NCBI GenBank assembly: GCA_025451755.1
Contig: JANWJT010000018.1
Location: 1 to 45,156 of the forward strand
Direction of reading: 5' to 3'
DNA from: Candidatus Microgenomates bacterium
Lineage (GTDB): Bacteria; Patescibacteriota; Microgenomatia; Levybacterales; UBA12049
Length of the DNA: 45,156 bases
Shown: one piece after another, positions 4,687 through 20,901 of the stretch
How the letters are laid out: every line of letters begins with the position of its first letter
Position numbering within the stretch: position 1 is the stretch's first letter
Made by a program: the position numbers and the translations under genes
Notes under the pieces: model-generated
Database searches by the model: none
Told to the model about the DNA's origin: nothing
What the model saw: the letters and a program-made list of their open reading frames with translations, nothing else

Positions 4687-4715
4687 CTTTCTTTCTATGT
4701 TATAGGATGTCTCTA

Positions 4716-4743
4716 TTGACTTTTTGATATAGTATGATATAAT
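4716..4743 (+). promoter_or_regulatory. Sigma70-type promoter for the sortase substrate/sortase pair
   Basis: TTGACT-16 nt-TATAAT with TG extension, 44 nt upstream of ATG 4788. Confidence 0.55.
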
Positions 4744-4787
4744 CCTATAACATTTTTATAATTAAAAAAACAGCCTTAATTTATTTT

Positions 4788-5366: not shown

Positions 5367-5380
5367 AATGGATAACGAAG

Positions 5381-5911
5381 ATGAGTTCTGCTTCTAAAAT
5401 ATTAATTTTCTCAGGTTTTTTGTTAATTTTTTTTGGAACATATTTATTTTTGGATCGCTATAGCTCGAGAAAACTAGAATTTCAAGATTTAAAAATAAGT
5501 AAAACTGTTTCTTCTAAGATAATTCCCGTAAGAATAATTATCTCAGCATTAAAGATAGATAGCGGAATATATCCTGCAAAAATTGATAATGGGAAATGGG
5601 AAGCAACTCAAAATGGGATTTCTTATCTTTCTTCTTCTCCCGTTCCGGGAAGTAAGGGAAACGCAATTTTGTACGGGCATAACTTTCCAAATCTTCTTGG
5701 GAATTTAAATAAAATAAAACCGGCAGATATAATAGAAGTCGTAATGAATACGGGGGAGAGAAAAAAATTCAAGGTCGAATTTACACATATAGTTACTCCA
5801 AGTCAAACTCATATTTTATCTCAGACAACTGACAGTAGGATAACTTTATATACATGCACAGGATTTCTAGATAGTAAGAGGTTTGTTGCAATAGCAAAAC
5901 TTCTAAAATAA
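5381..5911 (+). CDS. Sortase
   Basis: N-terminal TM; catalytic triad motifs ILYGHN (His), TLYTC (Cys), SKRF (Arg). Confidence 0.92.
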   Translation: MSSASKILIFSGFLLIFFGTYLFLDRYSSRKLEFQDLKISKTVSSKIIPVRIIISALKIDSGIYPAKIDNGKWEATQNGISYLSSSPVPGSKGNAILYGHNFPNLLGNLNKIKPADIIEVVMNTGERKKFKVEFTHIVTPSQTHILSQTTDSRITLYTCTGFLDSKRFVAIAKLLK

Positions 5912-5917
5912 TTTTTT

Positions 5918-7354: not shown

Positions 7355-7437
7355 AACTTGTGGCTTGAAATTATATCACTAACCCATAAGATGTTCAATC
7401 GATTCAATTGACACTGCATATATAATAGTATATAGAA

Positions 7438-7923
7438 ATGAAAAATCTACAGCTTTTAATAATTTTAATAATAACTTTAATTGTTATATCTCTTATTCAA
7501 AGAGAAGGAGTAGATAATAGTAATCAGAAGAAAAATATTATAACTTTACCACCTACGAAATCACAAACACAAACCCCAATTCCCACCCAAGCTTCAGCTC
7601 CCACATTAGTATTACCTACTTTGATTCCGGAATCTTTTTCTCAAAAAAATATTAAGTCGTTTGTCTATCCCAATTCAATAGTTTTAAATAAATCGGAAAA
7701 AGAAATGGCTTTACAAAGTTCGGATGATCCCTCGTCTATTACTAATTGGTATAAAGAAAAAGTAATTAGCTTGGATATGAAAGCTCAATCTTTTGTTCAA
7801 ACAAATACAAATGGAAATATTCTAAATAAATTAGCTGGAGCAAGAACAGGATTTAAAGTTACTCTAAAAATAGAAAAAAATAACTCAAGCTCTAGTACCG
7901 CTATCAAGGTTTCGATAGAATAA
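7438..7923 (+). CDS. Hypothetical membrane-anchored protein with Pro/Thr linker
   Basis: N-terminal TM, PT-rich linker, small globular domain (YPNS...WYKEK). Confidence 0.6.
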   Translation: MKNLQLLIILIITLIVISLIQREGVDNSNQKKNIITLPPTKSQTQTPIPTQASAPTLVLPTLIPESFSQKNIKSFVYPNSIVLNKSEKEMALQSSDDPSSITNWYKEKVISLDMKAQSFVQTNTNGNILNKLAGARTGFKVTLKIEKNNSSSSTAIKVSIE

Positions 7924-7956
7924 TCTAGTTTAGATTTAGCCCATAAAGATAGGGTA

Positions 7957-7985
7957 TTGACAAGAAATTTTTAGTTTGGTATAGT
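7957..7985 (+). promoter_or_regulatory. Strong sigma70-type promoter upstream of the 8048 gene and the DUF2292 gene
   Basis: TTGACA-17 nt-TATAGT with TG extension. Confidence 0.75.
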
Positions 7986-8002
7986 CCCTTTACAAATATT
8001 CT

Positions 8003-8026
8003 GCCCCGATGAGGGGTTTTTTATTT
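8003..8026 (+). terminator. Short terminator-like hairpin in the 5' leader
   Basis: GCCCC-GATGA-GGGGT followed by TTTTTATTT, just downstream of the predicted transcription start. Confidence 0.35.
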
Positions 8027-8047
8027 GGAATAATATTTAATGCTATT

Positions 8048-8797
8048 ATGAATGAAGACATAAAAACAACTTCCATACCAACAGATTTTATATCTTCGAG
8101 AAATGCAAATAGAGGCATTTTAAAATTAGAAAAACTGGAAATAAATAAAATAATTAGTTTATTTTCAAGGGCATTTAGAGCTTCGCTGCAAGCAGTAAAG
8201 AATAAAATAAATGATGCAGTAGGCGTTGGAACATCTGGCGGAAATTTTGGAAAAAATAGAAATTCACGCTTATTTATTATTTTTATTGCAGTTGTTCTTT
8301 TAGGATTGTCTTTCTATCTTGGAAAATCGCTAAACCAGAATTCGACAAACTATAATGATGATAGACCTCTTCCATCGGCAACAAAAGCAAGACAGGATTT
8401 AAATAAAGAATTTAAATTTCCTCTAAAAGATGCTAGGGGCGAGGATTTAAGTGAAATAAAGTACGTGATTGAATCTGCAGAACTTCAGGATTCAATTATT
8501 GTAAAAGGACAAAGAGCAAGAGCAGTCAAGGGAAGAACCTTTCTTATCTTAAACATAAAAATATCGAACAACTTTACTCAGGGAATCGAAATTAATAGCA
8601 GGGATTATGTAAGACTTTTAGTCAATGATTCCAAGGAATTGATAGCAGCAGATGTCCATAACGACCCAGTTGCAGTTCAGGCAATATCTACAAAGTATAC
8701 AAGACTTGGATTTCCAATAAACGATTCGGACAAAAATTTAATGCTGAAAATAGGGGAGATAAAAGGTAGTAAGCAAACAATTCAGCTTAATTTCTAA
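8048..8797 (+). CDS. Hypothetical bitopic membrane protein with extracellular Ig-like (DUF4352-like) domain
   Basis: ORF track starts at 8009, but that ATG lies in the leader hairpin loop, so the in-frame ATG 8048 (MNEDIK) is preferred. Single TM, then a beta-rich domain (FLILNIKISN...TRLGFPI...LKIGE). Confidence 0.6.
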   Translation: MNEDIKTTSIPTDFISSRNANRGILKLEKLEINKIISLFSRAFRASLQAVKNKINDAVGVGTSGGNFGKNRNSRLFIIFIAVVLLGLSFYLGKSLNQNSTNYNDDRPLPSATKARQDLNKEFKFPLKDARGEDLSEIKYVIESAELQDSIIVKGQRARAVKGRTFLILNIKISNNFTQGIEINSRDYVRLLVNDSKELIAADVHNDPVAVQAISTKYTRLGFPINDSDKNLMLKIGEIKGSKQTIQLNF

Positions 8798-8802
8798 TAA
8801 AT

Positions 8803-9021
8803 ATGGTGGGTTCTCAAAAAGATAAAGTTGCCATAATCAGCGAAATAAAAAAGGCTCTTGATGATATGGTATTCGGAAGTGTTGAGCTCTATGTCCAAAA
8901 TCGCAAAGTTACTCAAATTACAGTCCGCCACATAAAAAAGACAAATGTCGAGATGGAAAAAATCCCACAAACTGATTCTCAAGATAAAATCAATTTAAAA
9001 ATAGGTATTGACAAACAATAG
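8803..9021 (+). CDS. DUF2292 / YezD-like small protein
   Basis: 72 aa; I-x-x-AL-x-x-x-x-FGSVELYVQNRKVTQI matches the DUF2292 pattern (helix, then FGSV-x-I-x-V-x-x-x-x-V-x-QI). Confidence 0.75.
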   Translation: MVGSQKDKVAIISEIKKALDDMVFGSVELYVQNRKVTQITVRHIKKTNVEMEKIPQTDSQDKINLKIGIDKQ

Positions 9022-9038
9022 CACAGCATTATATAAAT
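9008..9038 (+). promoter_or_regulatory. Candidate promoter for the repeat-protein operon
   Basis: TTGACA at 9008-9013 (inside the end of the DUF2292 gene), AT-rich TATATAAAT 16-18 nt downstream; -10 position ambiguous. Confidence 0.45.
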
Positions 9039-9065
9039 GGATTTAACAGTTTAATTTAAGTTTAT

Positions 9066-9088
9066 AAGCTGACCGCAAACGGAGGCTT
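9066..9088 (+). promoter_or_regulatory. Conserved leader RNA hairpin, copy 1 (candidate antiterminator element)
   Basis: AAGC-TGA-CCG-CAAA-CGG-AG-GCTT; the 17-nt core 9069-9085 is identical to 19462-19478 on the - strand. Confidence 0.7.
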
Positions 9089-9143
9089 TTCTACCTGAAA
9101 TCTTTAGAAGGATTTCGGATAGAGGAGCCTCCGTTTTCGTTTT
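9077..9143 (+). terminator. Long leader terminator hairpin overlapping the conserved hairpin
   Basis: 9077-9093 pairs with 9120-9136 (17 bp incl. G-U) and 9095-9104 with 9109-9118; T-rich tail TTTTCGTTTT; mutually exclusive with the 9066-9088 hairpin. Confidence 0.7.
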
Positions 9144-9156
9144 AAAACGAAAACGG
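9131..9156. repeat. Perfect 26-bp palindrome
   Basis: CCGTTTTCGTTTT|AAAACGAAAACGG. Confidence 0.85.
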
Positions 9157-9175
9157 TGCAAAGAAGTGCAATCCA

Positions 9176-9192
9176 TCCCGCCTTTGGCGGGA
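9176..9192. repeat. Short GC-rich REP-like palindrome
   Basis: TCCCGCC-TTT-GGCGGGA; single copy seen in this window. Confidence 0.55.
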
Positions 9193-9228
9193 AAAGGAAA
9201 TATATAAAAGAGAGGAGGTGAAACATAA

Positions 9229-10467
9229 ATGAATAATACAAAACAAAAATTAGGAGTAGCAATTGCAACCGGAGCGCTTTTACTTAATGCTTTTGCTCCA
9301 CTCGCAATGGCAGATAACACAATCCAAATTTCTGGAAACGGTTCAAACTCAAACAACACAGCTAATGTGAATGTGAGTCAATCAACAACTGTTGTTCAAA
9401 ACAACACAGCGCACGTTACTAATAATGTTGATGTTGATGCAGATACTGGAGACAATGACGCAAAGGACAATACTGGCGGAGAAGTTTCTATCGAAACCGG
9501 TGATGCCGATGTAGACGTTAATGTTTCTAATACTCTCAATAGCAATAGTGCAAATGTTGATTGTTGCCAAAACGGAGATACCGAAGTCTTAATTCAGGGA
9601 AACGGCACAAATTCTGATAACGATGCCAACTTGAATTTAACAACAAATACAAGTGTTTTCCAGGATAATTACGCACGCGTTAATAATGATATTGATGCAG
9701 ACGCAGATACTGGAGATAATGACGCAAAGGACAACACTGGCGGAGATGTTTCTATCGAAACCGGTGATGCTAGCGTGAAAGTTTCGACTTCCACAACGGC
9801 AAATGCTAACTGGGCAAAAGTTGGAAGCTCAGGGCAAAACGGTGGCGTCAGCCTTCGAATACTTGGCAATGGAAGCAACAGCGACAACACAATCAATCTA
9901 GATTTAGATAATTCTGTAGTATTGACCCAGAATAACGATGCAAACATCGATAACGATGTTGATGCAGACGCAGATACTGGAGATAATAACGCAGAAGACA
10001 ACACAGGCGGAGATGTAATTATCAAAACCGGTGATGCTGATGTAGATGTTGAAGTTGATAATGCTGTAAATTTCAATTGGGCAGACGTAAATTGCGGATG
10101 TCTTCTTGACGATTTGTTGGCAAAAATCGATGGAAACGGCACAGATTCTGACAATGAAATAAATGCTTCTCTCTCTTTCGACAAAGGAGAAGGTTCATTT
10201 CAGGATAATGCTATTTGTCTAAATAACGATTTAGACGATATAGATGCCGATACAGGCGATAACGACAACAAAGACAATACCGCAGAGGGAGATAGCGATC
10301 CATTAATTGAAACCGGCGATGCCGATGCAAAAGTGGACGTAAATAACTCTGGTAATGTCAATGTACTCGGTGGCGATTCAGACTCTGAATGGCCAGATTT
10401 TGACTTTGACGTAGATTTTAATCTAAGTTTAAGTGAACTTCTCGGACTTCTTAGTTTGTTAAGCTAA
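9229..10467 (+). CDS. Secreted acidic Asn/Asp-rich repeat protein (4 repeats of ~85-90 aa), candidate major fibre subunit
   Basis: Perfect SD GAGGAGGTGA at 9212-9221; signal peptide ending AMA; four GNGxxSxN...QxNxA...TGDN...NTGG...IxTGDA repeats; no sortase motif. Confidence 0.8.
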   Translation: MNNTKQKLGVAIATGALLLNAFAPLAMADNTIQISGNGSNSNNTANVNVSQSTTVVQNNTAHVTNNVDVDADTGDNDAKDNTGGEVSIETGDADVDVNVSNTLNSNSANVDCCQNGDTEVLIQGNGTNSDNDANLNLTTNTSVFQDNYARVNNDIDADADTGDNDAKDNTGGDVSIETGDASVKVSTSTTANANWAKVGSSGQNGGVSLRILGNGSNSDNTINLDLDNSVVLTQNNDANIDNDVDADADTGDNNAEDNTGGDVIIKTGDADVDVEVDNAVNFNWADVNCGCLLDDLLAKIDGNGTDSDNEINASLSFDKGEGSFQDNAICLNNDLDDIDADTGDNDNKDNTAEGDSDPLIETGDADAKVDVNNSGNVNVLGGDSDSEWPDFDFDVDFNLSLSELLGLLSLLS

Positions 10468-10477
10468 TCTTTGGTCC

Positions 10478-10515
10478 GTAGGGTGTCTTGTTGGCACTTC
10501 GACAAGATGCCCTAC
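10478..10515 (+). promoter_or_regulatory. 16-bp intergenic hairpin without U-tract (candidate mRNA stabiliser or processing signal)
   Basis: GTAGGGTGTCTTGTTG-GCACTT-CGACAAGATGCCCTAC, 16 bp including 3 G-U pairs; followed by AGCCAGG, not poly-T. Confidence 0.6.
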
Positions 10516-10569
10516 AGCCAGGACTTAAAATTTAAAACTTGGACTGCCCGCAGATTTTAGATTTTAAAA

Positions 10570-12720
10570 ATGAAAATTAAAAAATATATATCGATACTAT
10601 TAATAATATTACTAGTCCAGTTTCAGGGCAGTTCTGTTTTTGCTTTTGAAATACCAAGTGCGCCTACAGCTCCTTCAGCTCCTGAATCAACGGCTCAGGC
10701 ACCTACAGCTCCTTCAGCTCCCGAAGCACCAGAAGCTCCAACTCTTGAGGAAGTTTTAGCGGATTCAGATCCAATTCCTACTGAGATAGAAGAAGAGGAA
10801 GACGAAGAGGATAAAGACGATGTTCCACAAATTCAAGAAACAATATCTCAGAATCAAGAGCAAGAAGGAGTCAATGATTCCGGGAACGTTGGGGACACAG
10901 CTATAGATACTGGTAATGCAAATACCACAGGTGCATTAACAACCTTAGGGAATACAAATGTTAATAGCTCTGGTGTAGGAGAGGATGGAAATAGTGTGGG
11001 AGTTATAAATTCCGGAAATGGAACAGATTCTACAAATACTGGTTCGGTTTCTCTATCGGGAGAAAATAATACATTTCAGGATAACAGTGCTGTGGTTGGA
11101 AGCAATCTTAGCCTATCCGCTGCAAGCGGAGATAATACTTCGGATAATAATGTAGGGAATACAGCTATAGATACTGGTAATGCAAATACCACAGCAACAG
11201 TTATTACAGGAGTAAATACAAATGTTGATGGAATTATGGTTTCTGAATTTAATATAGCGGATGACCATATTGGGGATATTGTTCTGGATTTTGGTGCAGG
11301 TTGTGTTTTTGGATGTGGCCAGACAGATTCAATTTTAGCACAAAACTCTGATAACGGATCAAATTCTACGAATAACGCAGCTGTTTCCGATACGTCCAAT
11401 ACTAATACTTTTCAGACTAACGATGCATCAATTGAAAGCAATCTTACACTTGATTCGGATTCTGGCAATAACTCTACAAGTGCCAACACTGGAGGAAATT
11501 CAACGATCGAAACAGGAGATGCGAATGTAGGCGCCAACCTACTGACATTCGTAAATAATAATGTCGCAGGAAATGTTGTTTTTGGAGTTGTAAATATATT
11601 TGGGGAATTGGTAGGAGACATATTTTTCCCTGAAAGTGCCCTATCCTGTTCAACTTGTGGCGGAGATGCAACCGCTGTAAATTCTGGTAACGGCTCGGAT
11701 TCAACAAATAATACAACAGTAAGCCAGACAAATTCCGATTCAACATTTCAGTATAACGACGCAAATATAGAAAATAATTTAGTATTATCAACAGCAACCG
11801 GAGGAAATGAGGCATCTGGCAATACAAACGGAAATTCAACAATAGAAACTGGAGATTCTGAGGCTATAGCTCAAGTTTTAAATATTGCGAATATGAATGT
11901 AGTTGGAGGAGATATGTGGCTAGTTTTGGTTAACGAAGCAGGGCAGTGGATTGGAAAAATTTTGGGGGCATCCGACGGAGCAAATTACGCTGGATCAACT
12001 GGCACAGAGTTTGCAATAGATGAAAATGGTGAGATCACAGCAATAAATTCCGGAAATGGTTCGGGTTCGGATAATAACTCAAGCATCTCTCAGAATACAA
12101 ATAACACTGTTGTTCAAACAAATACTGCAAATGTTGTAAATAATTTAAATCTTTCTGCAAATACCGGCGGGAATACGGCAAGTAACAATACTGGAGGAGA
12201 CTCAAAGATTAAAACAGGAGACGCAAAAATAATTGCAAATGTAGTTAATTTTGTAAATAACAATATAGTCGGAAACGGAAGATTGTTTGTAACGGTAGTC
12301 AACGTGTTTGGAAGTTGGATGGGGGATTTCGTAACGCCAGAGTCTCACAAAGAAAATAACAATGCAGGAATTGGGGGAGAACAAGCAGCAAGCCCGTCAG
12401 CTTCGAGTAATAATCAGCCAAATAATAATTCTTCTGGCGGTAGCTCTAATTCGTCCAGCTCATCAAACAACTCTATACAATTAGTGAGTGGAATAATAAG
12501 TGGTCTTTCAAGAAATACTCACGTATTAGGAATTTCTGCGCAAAACGTAAACGAAAGTCAAATACTTGGAGCAAATAATACCGGAGAAGCAGCTAGTTCC
12601 CAAAATAAAAAAGTAACGATTAATTTGGCATGGGTGATTTTATTTGTTCCAATTCTATTAACATTTTTTCTTTTTAGAAAAAGATTTATTTCAGCAATAA
12701 GATTGGTGGCTCGAAAATGA
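10570..12720 (+). CDS. Secreted Asn-rich repeat protein of the same family (about 4.5 repeats) with C-terminal membrane anchor
   Basis: Signal peptide (VFA), APTAPSAPE repeats and acidic tract, same repeat motif, S/N linker, C-terminal TM + RKR. Confidence 0.8.
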   Translation: MKIKKYISILLIILLVQFQGSSVFAFEIPSAPTAPSAPESTAQAPTAPSAPEAPEAPTLEEVLADSDPIPTEIEEEEDEEDKDDVPQIQETISQNQEQEGVNDSGNVGDTAIDTGNANTTGALTTLGNTNVNSSGVGEDGNSVGVINSGNGTDSTNTGSVSLSGENNTFQDNSAVVGSNLSLSAASGDNTSDNNVGNTAIDTGNANTTATVITGVNTNVDGIMVSEFNIADDHIGDIVLDFGAGCVFGCGQTDSILAQNSDNGSNSTNNAAVSDTSNTNTFQTNDASIESNLTLDSDSGNNSTSANTGGNSTIETGDANVGANLLTFVNNNVAGNVVFGVVNIFGELVGDIFFPESALSCSTCGGDATAVNSGNGSDSTNNTTVSQTNSDSTFQYNDANIENNLVLSTATGGNEASGNTNGNSTIETGDSEAIAQVLNIANMNVVGGDMWLVLVNEAGQWIGKILGASDGANYAGSTGTEFAIDENGEITAINSGNGSGSDNNSSISQNTNNTVVQTNTANVVNNLNLSANTGGNTASNNTGGDSKIKTGDAKIIANVVNFVNNNIVGNGRLFVTVVNVFGSWMGDFVTPESHKENNNAGIGGEQAASPSASSNNQPNNNSSGGSSNSSSSSNNSIQLVSGIISGLSRNTHVLGISAQNVNESQILGANNTGEAASSQNKKVTINLAWVILFVPILLTFFLFRKRFISAIRLVARK
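10897..11194 (+). repeat. Identical 34-nt intragenic direct repeat (10897-10930 and 11161-11194)
   Basis: ACAGCTATAGATACTGGTAATGCAAATACCACAG twice, encoding TAIDTGNANTT. Confidence 0.85.
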
Positions 12721-13838
12721 TAAAGAAAATAATTACATTAATGGCTTTTTTTATAGTAAGTATATCTGTGGCGGCACCGGCTATTTTTGCAGACGAAATT
12801 TCTGTATCAAATAATGGTGCAGGATCAAGCAACACAATAGTGATCGATACCAGTTCTACTTCAACTGTTGAGCAGGCAAATAATGCAGATATACAAAATA
12901 ACGTAGATGTAACAGCAAATACGGGAGATAATTCTGTTTCCTCAAATAATGCAGACGCGCATATAATAACAGGATCTATAGATAGTACATCTTCTATTAA
13001 TAATGAAAATATAAACTCAAATTTTGCAGAAAATCAGGAATGTGGTTGTAGCGATGAAACATCGTCTGCAATAGATGGAAATGGATCCGACTCTATAAAT
13101 AATCTTAACTTATCGTTTATAAATGCTATGAATGTTTCTCAGGAAAACTCAGCACAAATTACGAATAATTTAACAACAAATGCAAGTACTGGTAATAATC
13201 AGGCAAACAATAATAATGGGAATGTTGGCATAGAAACCGGAAATATTACCTCATTAATTTCTATTATAAATAAAAATATAAATTTAAATTCTGACTTTCA
13301 GGGAAAGAATAATGGCTCAATATCAATTTCCATTAGCAATAATGGGAGCGGATCTATTAATAGTATAGTTATGTTTTTTGGCAATAGTAGTAATTATGTA
13401 AGTAACAATTTTACAGACATAAAAAACAATGTAGTACAGAATTTGAATACTGGAAATAACATTGCAAATGGTAATAATGGGGCAGTCTTAATAGTAACTG
13501 GAGATATTATGAGTGTTATAACAATTGGAAATGAAAATATAAATGGTTCATTCTTCAAAGAGCAATGCAACTGCTCCAATATTATTCCGCCTCCTGGTGG
13601 GGGAAATCCAATGCCAATAGGAGACCCGCCGGTAGGAGCGCAGCCTTCTTCAAGCGGAAGTGGATCTTCGATAGGTGGTCCTGGACAAATATTGGGAGCT
13701 GCAATCGGTCAGATTCTGCCCGCAACAGGAGCTTATTGGATATTGCTAATGACAATTCTTGCCATTACAATGTTCTTAGCGGGTGGGGTTTTGCGCTTTG
13801 GTTCGGATTCTTCTCCTCCCTTAGCATATGCAGTCTAA
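12717..13838 (+). CDS. Secreted Asn-rich repeat protein (3 repeats) with LPATG sortase signal
   Basis: Signal peptide (IFA), same repeat motif, Pro/Gly/Ser linker, ILPATG + hydrophobic helix; ATGA-coupled to the upstream gene. Confidence 0.85.
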   Translation: MIKKIITLMAFFIVSISVAAPAIFADEISVSNNGAGSSNTIVIDTSSTSTVEQANNADIQNNVDVTANTGDNSVSSNNADAHIITGSIDSTSSINNENINSNFAENQECGCSDETSSAIDGNGSDSINNLNLSFINAMNVSQENSAQITNNLTTNASTGNNQANNNNGNVGIETGNITSLISIINKNINLNSDFQGKNNGSISISISNNGSGSINSIVMFFGNSSNYVSNNFTDIKNNVVQNLNTGNNIANGNNGAVLIVTGDIMSVITIGNENINGSFFKEQCNCSNIIPPPGGGNPMPIGDPPVGAQPSSSGSGSSIGGPGQILGAAIGQILPATGAYWILLMTILAITMFLAGGVLRFGSDSSPPLAYAV

Positions 13839-14385
13839 AAGACTCAAGCACTTAATCGGAAACGCCTTAATGGCGTTTTCTCTTTTATTGCTGGTTTTTA
13901 TTTATTATCCGATTTTATCTTTATACATTTTTCCGCCTGCTATCGATAAAAAAATTTTAGATAAGTCATTCTATGTAGAAATTCCAAAAATAAATATTGC
14001 ATCGCAGATTATTCCAAATGTAGATCCTTTTATCGAAACAGAATACAGAAAAGCGCTTGAAAGAGGAATAGCTCATGCAAAGAATACACCTCTACCCGGA
14101 GAAAAAGGAACATCTTTTCTTTTTGCCCATTCATCAGATTCTCCGTGGAGAATTACAAGATACAACGTAGCTTTTTTTAGATTGCCCGAGCTTAAAAAAG
14201 GAGATAATATAAAAATAGTAAGAGATGGAAAAGTATACGAATATAGAGTTTCTGATACTAAAACTGTGTGGCCCAATGAAGTTAATTACTTGCTAGGCAA
14301 TAGGAAAGATCAGCTTATTCTTCAAACTTGTACGCCGATTGGCACTTCCTTGCAAAGACTTCTGGTCTTTGCAGTCCTCAAATAA
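13828..14385 (+). CDS. Sortase
   Basis: N-terminal TM; LFAHS (His), LILQTC (Cys), QRLLV (Arg). Confidence 0.92.
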   Translation: MQSKRLKHLIGNALMAFSLLLLVFIYYPILSLYIFPPAIDKKILDKSFYVEIPKINIASQIIPNVDPFIETEYRKALERGIAHAKNTPLPGEKGTSFLFAHSSDSPWRITRYNVAFFRLPELKKGDNIKIVRDGKVYEYRVSDTKTVWPNEVNYLLGNRKDQLILQTCTPIGTSLQRLLVFAVLK

Positions 14386-14414
14386 AAAGCCCCGCTTATT
14401 AGGGCAGGGCTTTT
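14385..14414. terminator. Bidirectional intrinsic terminator between the two convergent fibre operons
   Basis: AAAAGCCC...GGGCTTTT inverted repeat with A/T tracts on both sides. Confidence 0.75.
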
Positions 14415-14431
14415 AAAAACAACTAAAAACG

Positions 14432-15040
14432 CTACGGAGTAACGTTAAGTGTATTCGATGGGGCAGTAATATTTGCTGTTACGTTGGAAGTACTATTTCC
14501 AGTCGTTACATTTACTGTGCCATTGGTGTTGCTGTTGGCACTATTATTGCCGGTTCTTGCTCTAGATCTAGCTTTCTTTACTTTAACCTTTGTTGTGTTG
14601 TTCTGACCAACGGTTGTTGGATTGGTCGTATTCGACGTTACGTTGCTTGTCGAACCAACTCCATTGCCCGATACAGTAAGATTGACCGTACTGTTGCATG
14701 GGCAAGTCGTTACATTGGCCTCGTTAAAACTTCCATCTACGGTAATATTTACGATAGAGTTTGCATTTCCGGTGTTGATTGTAACATTTCCACCGGTATT
14801 ACTATTTGCATTATTGCCACCTGTTTTTGCCGAAGAAGATATATTTATTGATATATTGGTGTTGTTATTCTGCGTAATATTGGTTGAATTATTTGAGCTA
14901 ATATTTACGCTGTTGTTTGAATCGCTACCATTTCCTGAAATATCAACATTTACATCTGCGTATACGCCTCCGGGAAGAAGGGCAGAAAGCATAAGAGTAC
15001 CAATAGTGAGTGTTGTTACCAGTCTTTTTTTGTAATCCAT
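14432..15040 (-). CDS. Secreted Asn/Thr-rich repeat protein (2 repeats, second one basic), same family as 9229-13838
   Basis: The track GTG at 15049 is part of the SD AAGGAGGTGA, so ATG 15040 (MDYKKR) is preferred; signal peptide ending VYA; two SGNG...QNN...TGxN...NT...TGN repeats joined by CPC. Confidence 0.8.
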   Translation of the reverse strand: MDYKKRLVTTLTIGTLMLSALLPGGVYADVNVDISGNGSDSNNSVNISSNNSTNITQNNNTNISINISSSAKTGGNNANSNTGGNVTINTGNANSIVNITVDGSFNEANVTTCPCNSTVNLTVSGNGVGSTSNVTSNTTNPTTVGQNNTTKVKVKKARSRARTGNNSANSNTNGTVNVTTGNSTSNVTANITAPSNTLNVTP

Positions 15041-15081
15041 TTTATTCACCTCCTTTCATCGTTTATTTTAAAATTTGTTAT

Positions 15082-16116
15082 TTATAACTCGCAGTTTATT
15101 TCTGATTCCGCATTGCATGTGTCAGTATTAAATCCGCCGTCTGCGTTATCTATTCCAGATCCGCCTATTAAGTTATCATCGCCTGAATCACCATTTAGGG
15201 TGTCGGAGCTATCGTTTCCTTCAAGAAGATCATTGTCGTTGCCTCCCTCAAGAAGATCCGCGTTCTCATTACCAATAAGATGATCGTTTCCATCTCCTCC
15301 ACGCAAGGTATCTGCTCCCAGTCCTCCAATTATCAGATCATCGCCAGCCTCTCCATAGATAGAGTCGGCTCCATCGTTACCAAAGATAACATCATTACCT
15401 TCTCCTCCGTGAATCGAATTTTCGGCTCCGGGTCCTCCAAGAATGCAATCGTCTCCGCCATTTCCATTTATAATATCGGACCCCTCAAGTCCCATGATAA
15501 GGTCGTTTCCGCTAGTTCCGTTAAGTGTTTCTCCCTGAGCAGTTCCTACGATGGGATCAGGAGAAAAATTTATTCCTTCACACTCCGTAGGTATGTCTAC
15601 CGAAATACCTATAATAAGATCAAAAACTACTTTTGCTCCCTGGTACTCATTTCCTGAATCGGATGGGAAAGTAGCTTTAAAACTGTACGTAGTTGAGTTA
15701 CCATTATTAATTGTCGAAAGAAACAGCCCATTTGGTCCGCCACTGTCGTCAAAAAATTCCTGAAGTGTTTTTGGTCCAGTCGGACTTGTTCCGCCATAAA
15801 GATCATTTCCTCCTTCGGAAATTACAAAGTCTAAAATTGATGCAAAGCTTGCAATTTCTTCCGTTTTAATACCTCTTATGCCAACGTTTCTTGGAACAGT
15901 TCCGCCATTTGCCACATCAACACTCCTTTCCTCTACGTCGCCTGGCAACATATTTGAGACAACAAAAATCGGATCGCCGTCCGGAACTCCCCAGACAACA
16001 TTTAAATCTCCAACTGCCCTTACCGTTGAAGGGTTAAAAAGATTTGGGGCAAAAAATTTAACAATCGTTCCGAGGACCAAGACCAAAATAAAAATTTTCA
16101 ATAAAATTTTTTTCAT
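15082..16116 (-). CDS. Secreted TasA/camelysin-like domain protein with C-terminal RTX (hemolysin-type Ca-binding) repeats
   Basis: NMLPGD...R.V.V.N.G and FPSDSGNEYQG...F resemble TasA/CalY; many GGxGxDxLx nonapeptides; lacks the FSDTETS N-terminal strand. Confidence 0.75.
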   Translation of the reverse strand: MKKILLKIFILVLVLGTIVKFFAPNLFNPSTVRAVGDLNVVWGVPDGDPIFVVSNMLPGDVEERSVDVANGGTVPRNVGIRGIKTEEIASFASILDFVISEGGNDLYGGTSPTGPKTLQEFFDDSGGPNGLFLSTINNGNSTTYSFKATFPSDSGNEYQGAKVVFDLIIGISVDIPTECEGINFSPDPIVGTAQGETLNGTSGNDLIMGLEGSDIINGNGGDDCILGGPGAENSIHGGEGNDVIFGNDGADSIYGEAGDDLIIGGLGADTLRGGDGNDHLIGNENADLLEGGNDNDLLEGNDSSDTLNGDSGDDNLIGGSGIDNADGGFNTDTCNAESEINCEL

Positions 16117-16120
16117 AAAT

Positions 16121-16885
16121 TTACGGCGCCTCTGTTGGAGTTAGTGTTGCACTCGGAGTTGCTATAGAGAATACGTTTGATGCCTGGAAAACATTCTGAG
16201 CACTTGTCTCCGTATCGCTTTGAAGTGCAAGAGTAATCGGAATAATAAGTCCAACAGCAAGTAGAGAAACTATGACTTTAAGTCCTGTTGATCCCAATCC
16301 TGAATGAGGAGAGGGCATTAGATTAAAATCATCCTCACGTCTCTTATTACTTTTTTTAGCGTTTTTTACATGCTTTATGATGTTAAACATTTCCATTAAT
16401 ATTACGAGCACTGCTGGGAAAATAATAAGAAGCGAAAATCCAACTTTAGATTTTGCAAAAGCCAAAAGTTTTCCTACAGCAGGAATAGTAATAAAGGTTT
16501 TTCCTAATATATTTTTCTCGCTAACAGTCCAACCGTCAGGCTCATCATTTGCATCTCCTTTTGTCTTATAGGCAACACCATTATTATTTGTTTCAGCGCT
16601 TACGATTCTATGTGTGATTATTGTTTTTGAGTTCTTCTCGGACCTAAAAGCTATAACATCTCCCTTATTGTATAGAGGTGTTGTAAGAGGAACAGGAGAA
16701 TCTAATTGATTTGCTGAGCGAACTACAACAATTGAGCCAACATCAATTGTGGGAGTCATAGAGCCAGAACGGACAATAAGTGCCTGATTACCAAAATAGG
16801 GGATTGCAACGTAAGCAACTCCCACTGCAATAAAAACAAGTGCTATTGATAGTAGAATATTTATTGCTTTGAATACTTTTGCCAT
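16121..16885 (-). CDS. sipW: SipW-type (ER-like, S26B) signal peptidase I with C-terminal extension
   Basis: VRSGSMTP (catalytic Ser), ITHRI (His), TKGDAN...D motif; adjacent to SipW-cognate substrates. Confidence 0.9.
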   Translation of the reverse strand: MAKVFKAINILLSIALVFIAVGVAYVAIPYFGNQALIVRSGSMTPTIDVGSIVVVRSANQLDSPVPLTTPLYNKGDVIAFRSEKNSKTIITHRIVSAETNNNGVAYKTKGDANDEPDGWTVSEKNILGKTFITIPAVGKLLAFAKSKVGFSLLIIFPAVLVILMEMFNIIKHVKNAKKSNKRREDDFNLMPSPHSGLGSTGLKVIVSLLAVGLIIPITLALQSDTETSAQNVFQASNVFSIATPSATLTPTEAP

Positions 16886-16945
16886 ACATGCTTTTCTCTC
16901 CTTTTAATTGTTATTTAATATATTGCCTTGAACCTTTGGGCCCTT

Positions 16946-16976
16946 AGGGCGGGGAACTTATTCTCTCACCCGCCCT
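16946..16976 (-). promoter_or_regulatory. GC-rich intergenic hairpin without U-tract downstream of the TasA-like major subunit
   Basis: On the - strand AGGGCGGG...CCCGCCCT (8 bp), followed by AAGGGCCC rather than poly-T. Confidence 0.55.
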
Positions 16977-16996
16977 TAAACTGAATCCATTAAGGA

Positions 16997-17905
16997 TTAA
17001 ATGGATGGTGTTGGCGTAACTTCTGGCCAAACTGGTGTAAAGTTCTGAGCACATGTAAATGTGCCGTTATTTCTAGACTGTACTGCGTAGAACTGTAAAT
17101 CTCCTATTACAGAATCAGTCTGAGCAATATTATCAATTGCTTGTGCACCAGAACATGTAAATCCAGTTCCTCTGTTTATTGGATTATTTAGTGCTGGGTT
17201 TGGATCGTCTCTGTCAGGACGTGGATCCGGTGTCAGAGTTCCAAAGCACCATTGCTTTCCAATGTATTGAGTTGTAGCCCCCTCTACTGGTCCTGATCCT
17301 CCCCAAATATTGGTGGATGAATCTGCCAATGCAATCTGTCCAACTTGACCCATTCCACTGATTGGACCTTGTAGGAATACATTCTCGTTTACTTCAAAGA
17401 CATTATCTCCATCGTCACCCCAGAAGACAATATTAACTTGACTATCTAGGTCACCGTCTGTGGTGCCGTCATTATCATCATTGTTTAGACCAGACACTTC
17501 GTCTTCTGGTTCTGTAATATCATTGTCTTCGTCCTCGGTAATTTGAGCTGCTGCGCAAAGATATGCATCATTATTGTCAACAGTCAATGAGATTGTGTCT
17601 TCTCCAAAATCACCTGGCTTAATGTCTTCAAAGTTGAAGAACTTTTCGAGAACTAAATCCGTAGAATCCCATGAAGTTCCTTCATTTGCGACAAGAACTC
17701 CTGTTGGATTCAAAGTATCTGTCAAATAATCAATTACATAACTCTCGTTATCTATCTTAAGATCAATAGCTCCTGCTACCAATGTGTTTCCCGTTGATGT
17801 TTCGGTATCAGAAAAGAATGCAAATGTCGCTCCGATTATAAGAGCGGCAGCTGCAAGTACTACTGCAATCGAAAGTAATATTTTCGTATTTATTAAGTTT
17901 GTCAT
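16997..17905 (-). CDS. TasA-like protein with SipW-cognate signal peptide, candidate major subunit
   Basis: GATFA-FFSDTETSTGNTLVAGAIDL signal/N-strand; FNFEDIKPGD motif; perfect SD AAGGAGGTGA at 17913-17922. Confidence 0.85.
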   Translation of the reverse strand: MTNLINTKILLSIAVVLAAAALIIGATFAFFSDTETSTGNTLVAGAIDLKIDNESYVIDYLTDTLNPTGVLVANEGTSWDSTDLVLEKFFNFEDIKPGDFGEDTISLTVDNNDAYLCAAAQITEDEDNDITEPEDEVSGLNNDDNDGTTDGDLDSQVNIVFWGDDGDNVFEVNENVFLQGPISGMGQVGQIALADSSTNIWGGSGPVEGATTQYIGKQWCFGTLTPDPRPDRDDPNPALNNPINRGTGFTCSGAQAIDNIAQTDSVIGDLQFYAVQSRNNGTFTCAQNFTPVWPEVTPTPSI

Positions 17906-17935
17906 TTATTTTTCACCTCCTTTCGTCAATAGATT

Positions 17936-19369
17936 TTATTCGCAAAGGTCTAAGTTTTGTAAAGCTGTTTGTAAACCGCTGTAGTTACTAACCGAGAAAT
18001 AATGACTTGCGTCTGTGGCGATCCCCTGTAAATAAGATGTATTAACATCAGCTCCAACTCCGACTACGAAAACTTCACCACCGCCTGATTTAAACGATGT
18101 TGCAGAAGCCGCCGCAACATCATCGGCAGTTGAGGAGGGAAGTGGTCTGTTTGGCTGACCATCGGTTACTATAATCATCTTGTCCGGAGATGTTCCATCT
18201 GCTCTATCATTTACTCCGCTTAATTCTCCTGCTGCTAGGTCAATACCTGATTTAAGATTTGTGTAGCCTCCCGATACGAGTGCGTCAATTGTTGCCTTAA
18301 GCGTAACAATATTTGAGGTTAATCCGTGGTTTAAGTCTCCTGTAGTTGCAAAACTACTCTTGCCTGCATGAATTCCTAACGGCGTTAAGCCAAGATCATC
18401 AACGAACGCTTTAGCTGCTGTTTTAAGCTGTCCAAGCTCTGTTGAATTGATGCTTCCTGATTTATCCAAAACAAGCATTACATCAGCCTGGCTACAGGCA
18501 AGTGGCGTTGGCGTTGGAGTTAGCGTAACAGAAGGAGTAGGAGTAATTGAAGGCACAGTGCCGTTACAAGTAAAGCTTAAATTATTTCTTTGTTGTATTG
18601 CGCTAAAGCTTATGTCTCCCATAACAGAATCAGTCTGCGAAGCATTATTAACTGCTGAACCATCGCAAAGAATTCCTGAATTAACAATTGGATTTACCCC
18701 TAGACCTTCTGCTACCGGATTTTGCGTGAGTGTTCCAAAACACCACGCTTTGCCTATAAAGTATGTTTCACCGCCAATTAGAGGATCTCCGGGATTACCG
18801 CCGACATTATTTGTTACAGAATCCGCTAAAACCAAACTGCTGTCTAAAACGCTTGATGCAGATCCTGATGCAATAATAGGTTCATTAGTTTCTAAAACAT
18901 TATCTCCGTCATCTGTCCAGAAGGCAAAATTAAGTAATCCACCAAGCTCACCGTCGTTTAAGTCTTGATCAGGGTCATTGCAGGTAGGATCATCTGCCTG
19001 CTCCGGCTCTGTGCAGTCAACATCATCGTCTTTTGTAAGGGTCATATCCATGCACGCCCATGCATTATTGGTATCAACGTGAATGCTAATAGTATCTTCT
19101 CCCTCGTCACCGGGCTTTATGTCGGTAAAGTTAAAGAACAGATCATCTGAGGTAAGATTTTTAAGTTCCCATGTAGTTGCCGAAGATAGCTCGTGATTAA
19201 GATAACTTGTGTTATCAATCTTAAGATCTATTGCTCCTGCAGTTAAAACGTTGCCGGTTGATGTTTCTGTATCGGAAAAAAAAGCGAAGCTTGCTCCTAT
19301 TACTAAAACTGCTGCAACAAGTACTGTTGCTAGGCTAAGTAAAATTTTTGTATTTATTAAGTTCGACAT
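17936..19369 (-). CDS. TasA-like protein with SipW-cognate signal peptide, PT linker and C-terminal VWA domain
   Basis: GASFA-FFSDTETSTGNVLTAGAIDL; FNFTDIKPGD; MIDAS motif DKSGS...T...TDG. Confidence 0.88.
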   Translation of the reverse strand: MSNLINTKILLSLATVLVAAVLVIGASFAFFSDTETSTGNVLTAGAIDLKIDNTSYLNHELSSATTWELKNLTSDDLFFNFTDIKPGDEGEDTISIHVDTNNAWACMDMTLTKDDDVDCTEPEQADDPTCNDPDQDLNDGELGGLLNFAFWTDDGDNVLETNEPIIASGSASSVLDSSLVLADSVTNNVGGNPGDPLIGGETYFIGKAWCFGTLTQNPVAEGLGVNPIVNSGILCDGSAVNNASQTDSVMGDISFSAIQQRNNLSFTCNGTVPSITPTPSVTLTPTPTPLACSQADVMLVLDKSGSINSTELGQLKTAAKAFVDDLGLTPLGIHAGKSSFATTGDLNHGLTSNIVTLKATIDALVSGGYTNLKSGIDLAAGELSGVNDRADGTSPDKMIIVTDGQPNRPLPSSTADDVAAASATSFKSGGGEVFVVGVGADVNTSYLQGIATDASHYFSVSNYSGLQTALQNLDLCE

Positions 19370-19385
19370 TTAATTTTATTTCTTT

Positions 19386-19457
19386 TTAATCACAAAAAAA
19401 CCCGCATATTTCTATGCCGGGTTTTGTCTTTGTACAAATTAATTTGAGTAATTTCAT
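19386..19457 (-). CDS. Possible 23-aa leader peptide MKLLKLICTKTKPGIEICGFFCD spanning the leader terminator
   Basis: ATG lies 4 nt after the GGAGG of the conserved hairpin; the frame runs through the terminator and stops 16 nt before the first structural gene. Confidence 0.3.
   Translation of the reverse strand: MKLLKLICTKTKPGIEICGFFCD
19394..19425 (-). terminator. Intrinsic terminator in the 5' leader of the TasA/SipW operon
   Basis: - strand AAAACCC-G-GCATA-GAAA-TATGC-GGG-TTTTTTT. Confidence 0.75.
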
Positions 19458-19484
19458 ATTTCCTCCGTTTGCGGTCAGAAACAC
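19456..19484 (-). promoter_or_regulatory. Conserved leader RNA hairpin, copy 2
   Basis: - strand GTGTTTC-TGA-CCG-CAAA-CGG-AG-GAAATAT; core identical to copy 1, outer stem different in sequence but still paired. Confidence 0.7.
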
Positions 19485-19492
19485 TTTATTTT

Positions 19493-19515
19493 AAAAAACC
19501 AGCAAAGTGCTGGTT
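19493..19515 (-). terminator. Second terminator-like hairpin in the same leader
   Basis: - strand AACCAGCA-CTT-TGCTGGTT-TTTT. Confidence 0.55.
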
Positions 19516-19655
19516 ATTAAAACTTATAAATTATATTTTTAGTAAAACTGGCAGAGTTATTCATATGATTAAACTATTGAATTTTTCCCTCTGAGTGGGC
19601 AGTTCAAAGAGAGATCTTTTGCCGTTTTTGTAGATATCGTGACAAAAGTACGACC

Positions 19656-19686
19656 ATTATAAACAATCTTAATGAAGTCCTGTCAA
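19656..19686 (-). promoter_or_regulatory. Candidate promoter of the TasA/SipW operon
   Basis: - strand TTGACA-19 nt-TATAAT; both hexamers are consensus but the spacer is long. Confidence 0.5.
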
Positions 19687-19761
19687 GACGGACAAACTAG
19701 ATAAAACTAATACTAAATTGTATTTGAATATAAAGTCCATTCGGATGTATAATGTATTTCT

Positions 19762-20772
19762 ATGGCGCAAGTTTTGGGGCTTATGCTCCTTTCTCTTTTT
19801 ATAACTTTTATACTTCTTATCCCATTTATAGACTTTTTGTATAAATTAAAAGTAAGAAGGCAAAAACAAAAAACTGTTGATATTTTTGATAACCCTACTC
19901 CTGTTTTTGATAAATTCCACGGCTGGAAACAAGGGACGCCATTTGGCGGTGGCGTACTAATTATTGCCGTAGTATCGATTCTTACCCTTTGGTCCCTGGG
20001 AATATTGAGTGTCTCTGTGGATTTATGGGAAGTTTTTGTGCTTTTGTTTACATTTATATCTTTTGGTCTTTTAGGATTCTATGATGATATTAAAAAGCTT
20101 GCCAACGGTAAAGGATCTCCTTTTTTTGGTCTTAGATTCAGATATAAATTTTTACTTCAATGGATTTTAGCTCTTATTATTGGAACTATTTTGTATACTC
20201 AGTTAGGATATACCTTTATTTTTATAAAAGGTTTCGGACTTGCTAGTTTAGGTTTTTTATTTATTCCATTTGCGGCATTTGTTATTGTTTCTTTTTCAAA
20301 TGCATTTAATATTGCAGACGGTTTAGATGGTCTTGCATCTGGTCTTCTTTTAATTTGTCTCGGAGCTTTTTTAGCAATTTCTCAGGAGCAGTTTGATCAG
20401 ACTCTTAGGATTTTTATTGCTGTACTTATGGGGAGCATGGGAGCATTCTTATATTTTAATATTTATAAAGCAAGAATTTGGCTTGGAGACGTTGGCTCAT
20501 TATCCTTAGGTGCAGTACTTGCTGTTATAGGGCTTTTAACAGGAAAAATAATTGCCTTGGCTTTTATAGGAGGAGTCTTTGTAATTGAGGTCGGCTCTTC
20601 TTTAATACAAATCCTCAGTAAAAAATTTTTAGGAAGAAAGTTATTTCCTGCTTCACCATTTCATCTTTATCTTCAAAAGATTGGGTGGGATGAACCAAAA
20701 ATTGTTATGAGAGCCTGGCTTTTAGGATTTTTATTTGCAATTCTGGGACTATATATAGCTTACATCAGGTAA
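19762..20772 (+). CDS. mraY: Phospho-N-acetylmuramoyl-pentapeptide transferase
   Basis: GTPFGGG, GFYDD, NAFNIADGLDGL, LGDVGS, PFHL motifs; first gene of the dcw cluster. Confidence 0.93.
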   Translation: MAQVLGLMLLSLFITFILLIPFIDFLYKLKVRRQKQKTVDIFDNPTPVFDKFHGWKQGTPFGGGVLIIAVVSILTLWSLGILSVSVDLWEVFVLLFTFISFGLLGFYDDIKKLANGKGSPFFGLRFRYKFLLQWILALIIGTILYTQLGYTFIFIKGFGLASLGFLFIPFAAFVIVSFSNAFNIADGLDGLASGLLLICLGAFLAISQEQFDQTLRIFIAVLMGSMGAFLYFNIYKARIWLGDVGSLSLGAVLAVIGLLTGKIIALAFIGGVFVIEVGSSLIQILSKKFLGRKLFPASPFHLYLQKIGWDEPKIVMRAWLLGFLFAILGLYIAYIR

Positions 20773-20901
20773 TTCATTTTTCAAAATGACCCATCCTTCA
20801 CAAAGTTTCGGAAGGTCATGGTCTGAAGCTTATGAATCTTTTATCATTAAGAGTAGTAATTAATTCTCGAACAGATTATTTTCTATAGGTATGCTAAGTT
20901 C

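Follow-up and report, generated by a model that had tools for sequence, protein, structure and literature searches.

A leader RNA hairpin shared by two convergent surface-fibre operons of a Microgenomates bacterium, next to a DUF2292 gene: a candidate antitermination element

Background

Why do two convergent surface-protein operons of a Microgenomates bacterium carry the same short sequence in their 5' leaders, and what might act upon it? The question is raised by contig JANWJT010000018.1 of the Candidatus Microgenomates bacterium assembly GCA_025451755.1, of which we analysed positions 1 to 45,156 of the forward strand; this whole stretch of 45,156 nucleotides (nt) is called the window below. 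The 17-mer CTGACCGCAAACGGAGG occurs in it at 9069-9085 (+) and again at 19462-19478 (-), and a gene of the DUF2292 family ends shortly upstream of the first copy. An original prediction, made by reading the window alone, held that both copies fold as an RNA hairpin without a named family, that an intrinsic terminator follows each of them, and that the DUF2292 protein binds the hairpin and co-regulates both operons; a covariance-model search was proposed along with it. Here we describe the element as a structured RNA which probably competes with a terminator upstream of the main fibre operon, and which may well be a factor-dependent antiterminator with DUF2292 as the most likely factor. The class of mechanism is known, and the components appear to be new.

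Results

The motif folds as a structured RNA hairpin

No third match with up to 3 mismatches was found in the window, and none of 100 dinucleotide-preserving shuffles reached the two-copy state. Both copies are sense-oriented and lie upstream of surface-protein genes, 9229-10467 (+) and 17936-19369 (-), which confirms the placement in surface-operon leaders as first described. They are also the only copies in the source genome (536,454 bases in 22 contigs, 89.5% complete, with the window as contig 18), both by pattern and by covariance model; the model scores copy 1 at 43.8 bits and copy 2 at 40.6 bits, and the next best match at 14.5 bits (E 1.3).

The hairpin measures 21 nt and is built of a 4-base-pair outer stem, a GA-opposite-A internal loop, a CCG/CGG stem and a tetraloop. 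Copy 1 occupies 9067-9087 (+), with the 17-mer core at 9069-9085, and copy 2 occupies 19460-19480 (-), with the core at 19478-19462; the outer stem of copy 2 can be extended to 19484-19456 (GUGUUUC/GAAAUAU). The fold first drawn for the motif was right as to the hairpin itself, but its UGA/AG internal loop counted in one pair too many. The second and the second-last base of the motif pair with each other, which leaves GA/A as the loop, and in none of 99 leaders is this pair (14-28 in the alignment) unpaired.

These 99 distinct leaders were aligned in a fixed register with 12 nt on each side of the motif. They were chosen from 131 fuzzy matches by demanding that the inner stem pair and that the site lie outside a long open frame; the latter, rather crude filter removed 30 of the 131, about nine evident leaders among them (loci L005, L009, L014, L019, L045, L049, L052, L065 and L069). 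As pairing of the inner stem was demanded at selection, the outer pairs and pair 14-28 alone are free of bias, and the alignment under-samples. Within it C13-G29, the closing pair, never changes. At pair 12-30 there is G-C in 81 leaders, U-A in 15, G-U in 1 and no pairing in 2, and pair 14-28 is U.G in 74, U-A in 13, C-G in 9 and A-U in 3. Pair 11-31 is formed in 71 of the 99 (U-A 43, A-U 20, GU or UG 6 and C-G 2, with other combinations in 28), and pairs beyond it are poorly kept. The covariation score of 0.215 compares with 0.104 for shuffled alignments, where 0 of 500 came as high, and with 0.06-0.14 for slid registers. In other lineages the closing pair, constant in this alignment, can be U-A, and pair 12-30 can be A-U; a double change from C-G to U-A occurs at pair 18-25. 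The tetraloop always has four bases, of free sequence, and the GA/A internal loop is invariant.

The majority U.G pair together with the constant sense orientation and a site past the promoter indicates an RNA rather than a DNA site, and we have little doubt that the hairpin is a structured RNA. The kept pairing that had been expected of such a structure is borne out by the covariation, the majority U.G pair and the strand-specific placement in leaders. A DNA-level site could be an operator, or the two copies could be inverted recombination sites flanking an invertible 10.4-kilobase (kb) segment that holds both operons; the high sequence conservation would agree with this, as would the 11 genomes in which two copies are inverted, facing each other, 6-10 kb apart. 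Yet on the opposite strand the majority U.G pair would read C.A, pairing is maintained at three positions by compensatory changes, the motif is always sense to the downstream gene and past the promoter, and its overlap with an RNA terminator is systematic. Further, many genomes have a single copy, and the gene annotation, which covered 3451-21984, brought no recombinase to notice. We regard a DNA site as very improbable.

At three loci (L049, L052 and L125) the hairpin lies ahead of a nucleotide-sugar dehydrogenase-like gene (MNYKKIL...VGIIGIGYVG), and two of these three copies have a compensatory CUG/CAG inner stem.

The hairpin is spread over Microgenomatia

In the window's family the motif is present in 82 of 194 species genomes and in 44 of 89 genera, allowing up to 2 mismatches, and at the same stringency the pattern gave 110 matches in the family against 9 for a reversed-pattern control. 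The covariance-model search proposed with the original prediction returned, besides the two copies in the source genome, the motif in 44 of 151 genomes sampled evenly across Microgenomatia, over many families (43 of 150 without G402, a genome flagged as unpublished). In an even sample across the phylum the motif was absent from all 149 genomes that do not belong to the window's family, 143 of them being members of other classes. Loci fetched through the DUF2292 protein come, as judged from their record titles, from Levy-, Gottesman-, Woese-, Chisholm- and Roizmanbacteria of the Microgenomates group. Many public records of metagenome-assembled genomes with a Microgenomates-type locus are titled 'uncultured Gammaproteobacteria' or 'Pseudomonadales' (loci L130-L206), and these are probably mislabelled submissions.

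Searched with Rfam 15, the whole window gave tRNA only, and neither leader could be assigned to a family; at permissive settings the two leaders gave only matches at chance level, and 18 related loci gave none. The absence of a named RNA family therefore holds for the window, its leaders and the related loci. Text searches, with supplements outside their reach, returned no description of the hairpin or of any native cis-regulatory RNA of Microgenomatia in the text they covered. The hairpin is apparently an undescribed, class-wide cis-regulatory RNA.

Hairpin and terminator are alternatives at copy 1

The leader of copy 1 has a predicted sigma-70-type promoter at 9008-9037 (+), with the -35 hexamer TTGACA at 9008-9013 and a -10 region TATATA/TATAAA at 9030-9037, and it is from this match that the putative transcription start is placed. 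The -35 hexamer falls within the final DUF2292 codons, an arrangement also seen in related loci. Of 98 leaders 63 have a promoter match, defined as at least 10 of 12 positions to TTGACA-N16-18-TATAAT, in the 130 nt upstream, compared with 7 of 98 shuffled ones, and the match ends a median of 43 nt before the motif.

The minimum free energy fold of copy 1 excludes the small hairpin. Instead CGGAGGC at 9080-9086 pairs with GCCUCCG at 9127-9133 and closes a long hairpin, after which comes UUUUCGUUUU. The terminator as a whole spans 9077-9143 (+), with the stem CGGAGGC...GCCUCCG at 9080-9133, an AAA/UUU extension and a U-tract at 9134-9143. Folding 9043-9146 gave -45.0 kcal/mol for the terminator form and -23.3 kcal/mol with the small hairpin enforced, and in the latter case no substantial helix abuts the U-tract. 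In copy 1 the hairpin and the terminator are alternatives in one competition. Terminator-like hairpins do follow both window copies, as had been claimed, but at copy 1 the two are not successive elements, as the stem 9080-9133 uses the 3' half of the hairpin. It should be noted that a simple consensus scanner listed neither window terminator, because the copy-1 stem is long and branched and the copy-2 stem is bulged; folding was used instead.

Terminators were counted by taking, within 200 nt, the first hairpin that directly adjoins a U-run and folds at -7 kcal/mol or lower. By this measure the terminator 5' arm starts at motif positions 12-17 or at +1/+2 in 73 of 84 leaders of the copy-1 type. 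Among the remaining ones the terminator is separate in 5, in two of these by a single base; another 5, with a different downstream element, lack a terminator within 200 nt, and 1 contains N. The median energy is -6.4 kcal/mol for the hairpin and -19.0 kcal/mol for the terminators, and the hairpin is the weaker of the two in 92 of 95 leaders. Termination is hence expected as the default, and some factor would be needed to keep the hairpin closed for read-through. We consider this competition with the terminator to be likely.

A perfect 26-nt palindrome, CCGTTTTCGTTTTAAAACGAAAACGG, at 9131-9156 overlaps the 3' arm and U-tract of the terminator, and it could fold as an alternative hairpin if the terminator stem were blocked. 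Metatranscriptome contigs of relatives that are 90-97% alike cover 9174-10402 only, with no cover on DUF2292 or the leader.

Copy 2 represents a second leader architecture

Leaders of the copy-2 type, 15-16 in number with the window's copy 2 included, have a U-A outer pair. An AUG located 2-6 nt after the GGAGG of the motif opens an open reading frame (ORF) in 14 of 16 such leaders, compared with 1 of 95 others. These leader ORFs have 11-31 codons in a conserved frame, their peptides are partly conserved, and their stops lie within or close to the terminator. In the window the leader ORF of 23 codons plus stop runs from 19457 to 19386 on the minus strand, with the GGAGG of the motif as its Shine-Dalgarno (SD) sequence. 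It traverses the terminator at 19421-19394 (stem 19421-19401, U7 at 19400-19394; -8.7 kcal/mol), which is separate from the hairpin. As judged from this layout, the hairpin of copy 2 would cover the ribosome-binding site used by the leader ORF, which is short and continues into the separate terminator. The assumption of one architecture for both window copies had to be abandoned, as copy 1 overlaps its terminator and copy 2 has one about 40 nt downstream plus a leader ORF. With architectures that differ in this way, the proposed 'co-regulation' of the two operons could even be reciprocal.

The leader ORFs bear on the alternative that the hairpin mainly controls translation or RNA stability, by masking an SD-like GGAGG or as a 5' stabiliser or processing signal of highly abundant fibre mRNAs; the terminators would then be plain attenuators or mark where the DUF2292 transcript ends. 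The GGAGG does lie in the paired 3' strand and precedes a leader ORF in 14 of the 16 copy-2-type leaders, and no terminator separates DUF2292 from the hairpin, so that DUF2292 transcripts also end at the leader terminator. Such an ORF is however present in only 1 of the 95 other leaders, and where G28 is replaced by A or U position 14 compensates, which means that pairing matters more than SD identity. A pure stabiliser, moreover, needs no bases shared with a terminator, as is the case in 73 of 84 leaders, and unlinked copies of the hairpin have no upstream gene to terminate. This explanation appears to us quite improbable.

Directly upstream of copy 2 there is a further terminator-like hairpin with a U6 run at 19493-19513 (-), at a place where no gene precedes on the minus strand. 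The TTGACA/TATAAT pair nearest to copy 2 is at 19686-19656, with a spacer of 19 nt. At three loci (L008, L051 and L065) GIY-YIG-like ORFs of 84-92 amino acids (aa) stand between a copy-2-type leader and the expected surface-protein gene, and these are possibly mobile insertions.

The hairpin is linked to DUF2292 genes

The candidate trans-acting partner is encoded at 8803-9021 (+). Its product of 72 aa matches PF10055 at 32.2 bits against a cut-off of 22, so the DUF2292 assignment stands, and the stop codon at 9019-9021 lies 47 nt before the copy-1 motif. DUF2292 is single-copy in 86 of the 194 family genomes, and at up to 2 mismatches the motif is found 48-324 nt (median 150) downstream, on the same strand, of 70 of these 86 genes. 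The other 16 comprise 13 with a 3-4-mismatch variant 22-104 nt past the stop, 2 at contig ends and 1 with a terminator only. Taken together, DUF2292 is directly upstream of the motif in 83 of 84 assessable family genomes. We also fetched 80 loci from a species-level genome collection through the DUF2292 protein alone and scanned them demanding that both closing pairs be kept; 75 have the hairpin within 400 nt, and one of the misses is a contig end.

The 151 genomes of the class sample divide into 41 with both motif and DUF2292 (40 without G402), 3 with the motif only, 6 with DUF2292 only and 101 with neither; outside the window's family the corresponding numbers are 36, 3, 6 and 100. A model match lies within 700 nt downstream for 36 of 49 DUF2292 matches. 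It is striking that within families the distribution is patchy and that motif and DUF2292 occur in the same genomes. The enrichment of the motif near DUF2292 that the original prediction implied thus extends beyond this genome, with 70 of 86 genes in the family, 75 of 80 fetched loci and the 41/3/6/101 division in the class.

Some of the 40 motif matches away from DUF2292 are chance matches inside coding regions. Real unlinked copies precede TasA-type genes, other secreted proteins and the nucleotide-sugar dehydrogenase-like gene, and they are found in genomes that have DUF2292 or in incomplete assemblies with the match at a contig end. Homologues of the 9229-10467 protein account for 79 of the 97 ORFs downstream of motif instances.

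The DUF2292 protein and other candidate partners

The AlphaFold2 model of the window's DUF2292 protein has a helix at residues 5-20, strands at 25-32 and 35-43 which form a beta-hairpin, and a disordered tail, at a predicted local distance difference test (pLDDT) value of 77. A search with its sequence against the PDB gave 0 matches at E<=10. The NCBIfam OscA equivalog is matched at 31.8 bits, below the cut-off of 85, and the prediction of self-association came to 0.38 relative to a mark of 0.42. In the available parts of the papers found, no molecular function is described for members of DUF2292, YezD or OscA. Mutual information between protein and RNA was calculated over 130 pairs; the RNA core varies in only 2-8 of them, and the highest-scoring columns fall in the protein's variable tail.

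Other known RNA-binding proteins were searched for as partners. A NusG paralog of the RfaH, LoaP or UpxY type was rejected, as PF02357 is found in 171 of 194 family genomes, one in each (two in about 5), irrespective of the motif. CsrA was likewise discarded, being present in 7 of 151 class genomes and absent from 37 of the 44 motif genomes. The CAT_RBD domain (PF03123) gave 0 matches in the 89.5%-complete source genome, with a control that was positive in 4 of 14 genomes, and no match to the L7Ae family (PF01248) was found in the source genome. A kink-turn is ruled out because the pairs flanking the loop, C17-G26 and C18-G25, are Watson-Crick (the latter with the C-G to U-A double change), leaving only GA opposite A. 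The search for an ANTAR-domain protein gave no match, yet its control was likewise silent in all genomes.

The source genome has on contig 6, at 1996-2316 (+), two CsrA domains in one 132-aa frame, apparently a single-chain tandem CsrA. All 7 CsrA genomes have the hairpin, and two of them (G367 and G435) are among the 3 hairpin genomes without detectable DUF2292.

Weighing a factor-dependent antiterminator

From these results we infer that termination is regulated, that the effector is a protein rather than a ligand and that this protein is DUF2292. In such a scheme the hairpin would be transcribed about 25-45 nt into the 5' leader of a cell-surface operon. Its 3' strand (CGGAGG plus 1-2 nt) would also be the start of the terminator 5' arm, so that only one of the two structures could form. 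Termination would be the default, and the fibre operon would be on only if a trans-acting factor held the hairpin while RNA polymerase passes the U-tract. The candidate factor, a DUF2292 protein of 55-85 aa encoded immediately upstream, would recognise the GA/A internal loop, which is invariant, together with the C-G pairs beside it, and not the variable loop. A factor-dependent antiterminator hairpin at the main fibre operon, with DUF2292 as its most likely factor, has in our view about an even chance of being correct; that DUF2292 is the factor acting on the hairpin is suggested by the genomic linkage, and we put this forward tentatively, at slightly below even.

Several observations weigh against this scheme, some against the choice of partner and some against a purely local competition. 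Compared with the PDB, the DUF2292 model came no closer than a Foldseek E of 2.6 and a Z of 3.1, so that no known fold, an RNA-binding one included, could be named for it, and among the conserved residues acidic or polar ones (E28, Q38, Q32) are as many as basic ones (K46). The relative OscA is tied to sulfur starvation and not to RNA, as far as its name and listings tell. Three genomes have the motif without detectable DUF2292, and two of these have CsrA. Related genomes are not independent, hence the two-by-two division of the class sample overstates significance. Further, 70 of 80 DUF2292-adjacent instances have kept the downstream fibre gene, and a homologue of the membrane-protein gene 8009-8797 is directly upstream on the same strand in 79 of the 80 protein-fetched loci. 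As the membrane-protein gene, DUF2292 and the fibre gene travel together, linkage alone cannot pick the partner.

With three genes and the leader inherited as a block, and with a DUF2292 fold that gives no RNA-binding signal, the same RNA switch might have another effector. This could be a protein, for instance one that works with the membrane protein 8009-8797 or receives a signal from it, or a small ligand or ion which stabilises the hairpin. DUF2292 would in that case take part in fibre biogenesis and merely be inherited along with the switch; the three motif genomes without it would find an explanation as well. However, the base identity of the stems is conserved, the internal loop invariant and the loop free, which is the pattern of a protein site rather than of a ligand site, and we know of no riboswitch aptamer as small as 21 nt. 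The homologues of the membrane protein have cytoplasmic tails that are short, basic and poorly conserved, and the known RNA-binding candidates that were checked (NusG, CAT_RBD, L7Ae and CsrA) fail. We find another effector unlikely, though deserving of attention.

As for the competition itself, the terminator of copy-2-type leaders starts 39-44 nt past the motif in 12 of 15 cases, with no overlap with the hairpin. In many DUF2292-adjacent leaders a second conserved terminator (AAAACGGAAAC...CUUCCGUUUUUUU) follows about 100 nt on, and this one lacks a copy of the hairpin. A purely local competition fails for the separate copy-2 terminators and for these unprotected second ones. In the window, moreover, the gap of 21.7 kcal/mol between the two forms of copy 1 means that any rescue must be kinetic.

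Separate and tandem terminators would be expected if the hairpin and its factor load onto RNA polymerase in a processive antitermination of the lambda N-boxB or put-like RNA kind and render it resistant to several terminators further on, the overlap with the first terminator being secondary. The targets would fit too, as they are long surface-structure operons, and processive antitermination (RfaH, LoaP, EAR) usually serves such operons. On the other hand, the terminator 5' arm starts at fixed positions inside the 3' strand of the hairpin in 73 of 84 leaders, which argues for a selected mutual exclusion; there is no NusG paralog, and the copy-2 type is alternatively explained by its leader ORF. 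A processive mechanism therefore seems improbable to us.

The factor-dependent antiterminator may also be extended to both operons. One pair of DUF2292 and hairpin would then have opposite effects, switching the sortase-dependent operon on and the TasA/camelysin-type operon off, since the masked ribosome-binding site would block translation of the leader ORF that would otherwise melt the copy-2 terminator, and DUF2292 would be the first member of a new family of very small RNA-binding antiterminators. We mention this as a speculation with a low probability.

Further leader elements and neighbouring genes

Between the copy-1 terminator and the fibre gene, at 9154-9191 (+), lie a box CGG-N-GAAGUGC (9154-9169) and a small GC hairpin (9177-9191), which recur in related leaders of several genera; the SD sequence GGAGG of the fibre gene follows at 9214-9218. 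In the leaders with a second terminator, this terminator is followed by a conserved CGGA-N-GAAGUGC box, a small GC hairpin and the SD sequence of the fibre gene. Such a second leader module was seen about 100-190 nt past the hairpin in L033, L034, L037, L038 and L040-L043. In the window's lineage the hairpin is fused with the second-type terminator (9077-9143) and the box stands at 9154-9169, and in some lineages the second module stands alone about 100 nt past the hairpin's own terminator. A third architecture without an overlapping terminator was seen in L111, L114 and L121 (also in L064, L106, L022 and L074), where a stem with the conserved sequence CGC(A/U)(A/U)C...AUCCUA in its large loop, or else a CUGCCC box, comes directly after the hairpin. 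The sequence CUGCCC also occurs upstream of copy 2, at 19602-19597 (-), in a hairpin-like stretch.

The membrane-protein gene at 8009-8797 (+) encodes a single-pass protein with a short basic cytoplasmic N-terminus, a transmembrane helix and an extracytoplasmic domain. Its product has no Pfam or NCBIfam match, and its structural look-alikes in the atlas are partly DUF4352-like, which is to be taken as a lead only. The gene ends 6 nt before the start of DUF2292, so the two are probably co-transcribed.

By gene calls and family scans the plus-strand fibre operon extends over 9229-14385. Its main target gene, 9229-10467, encodes a secreted Asn/Thr/Val-rich repeat protein of 412 aa. It is followed by genes for two further secreted proteins, 10570-12720 and 12717-13838 (the latter with an LPATG sorting signal), and by a sortase gene at 13828-14385. 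The convergent minus-strand fibre operon, delimited in the same way, occupies 14432-19369. Its gene 17936-19369 encodes a camelysin/TasA-type N-terminus plus a VWA domain, and the others encode a camelysin-type protein (16997-17905), an S26 signal peptidase (16121-16885) and an RTX-repeat protein (15082-16116). The last gene, 14432-15049, has an N-terminus ...VDISGNGSDSN... like the ...IQISGNGSNSNN... of the 9229-10467 protein, which indicates that the convergent operons share a paralogous repeat protein. From this gene content 'fibre operons' is a fair name for both.

Discussion

Copy 1 resembles the ribonucleic antiterminator (RAT) of the BglG/SacY/LicT systems in that a short imperfect leader hairpin shares bases with the 5' arm of a far more stable terminator (73 of 84 leaders), that termination is the default, and that a small protein reading the internal loop and adjacent pairs would rescue transcription. 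The likeness holds for copy 1 of the window, while the terminator of copy 2 is separate. A RAT has about 29 nt and two internal loops, whereas the element described here has 21 nt and one GA/A internal loop. No CAT_RBD protein and no phosphotransferase system (PTS) regulation domains are involved here, the candidate being an unrelated helix plus beta-hairpin, and the targets are surface fibres, those of the RAT systems being sugar catabolism.

A small leader element before terminators in long surface-structure operons is also reminiscent of lambda N-boxB, RfaH-ops, the LoaP leader hairpin and EAR, and the second downstream terminator in many leaders would fit these processive systems. They differ in that there is no NusG paralog here and in that physical overlap with the first terminator is not their feature. 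In boxB the loop is the recognised part, but in the present hairpin the loop is unconserved.

For copy 2 only, the short ORF with its own SD sequence running into an intrinsic terminator (14 of 16) is similar to a leader-peptide attenuator, and Rfam Leu_leader is matched by the copy-2 leader at 22.6 bits against a cut-off of 50, which reflects the layout only. In contrast to such attenuators there is no evident run of regulatory codons, no alternative antiterminator pairing was identified, and the SD sequence lies inside a conserved hairpin common to leaders without an ORF. ANTAR targets differ as well, with two tandem hexaloop hairpins there and a single tetraloop hairpin here. As to the DUF2292, YezD and OscA proteins, the window protein passes the Pfam DUF2292 model and resembles the OscA model below its cut-off; unlike the sulfur uptake context of OscA, the context here is surface-fibre operons.

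Almost nothing is known of gene regulation in the Candidate Phyla Radiation (CPR), or Patescibacteria, and the hairpin would be a rare native cis-regulatory RNA there. According to the available portion of a 2024 perspective, regulation of the CPR cell cycle is virtually unknown, and what governs host-attached versus free CPR cell states is completely unknown (PMC11665869). Here a class-wide leader RNA precedes the main fibre operons, which encode the structures most likely to mediate cell contact. If the scheme is true in its reciprocal form, ultrasmall CPR cells would have a switch between two kinds of surface fibre, and by extension the sulfur-linked YezD/OscA relatives elsewhere would also be RNA-binding regulators. 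DUF2292, a family without a molecular function, gains a directly testable hypothesis, namely that it binds a 21-nt hairpin and suppresses a terminator. Further, the hairpin would offer a compact native switch for inducible-expression tools, which the field lacks, and it is of clear interest for both RNA regulation and CPR biology.

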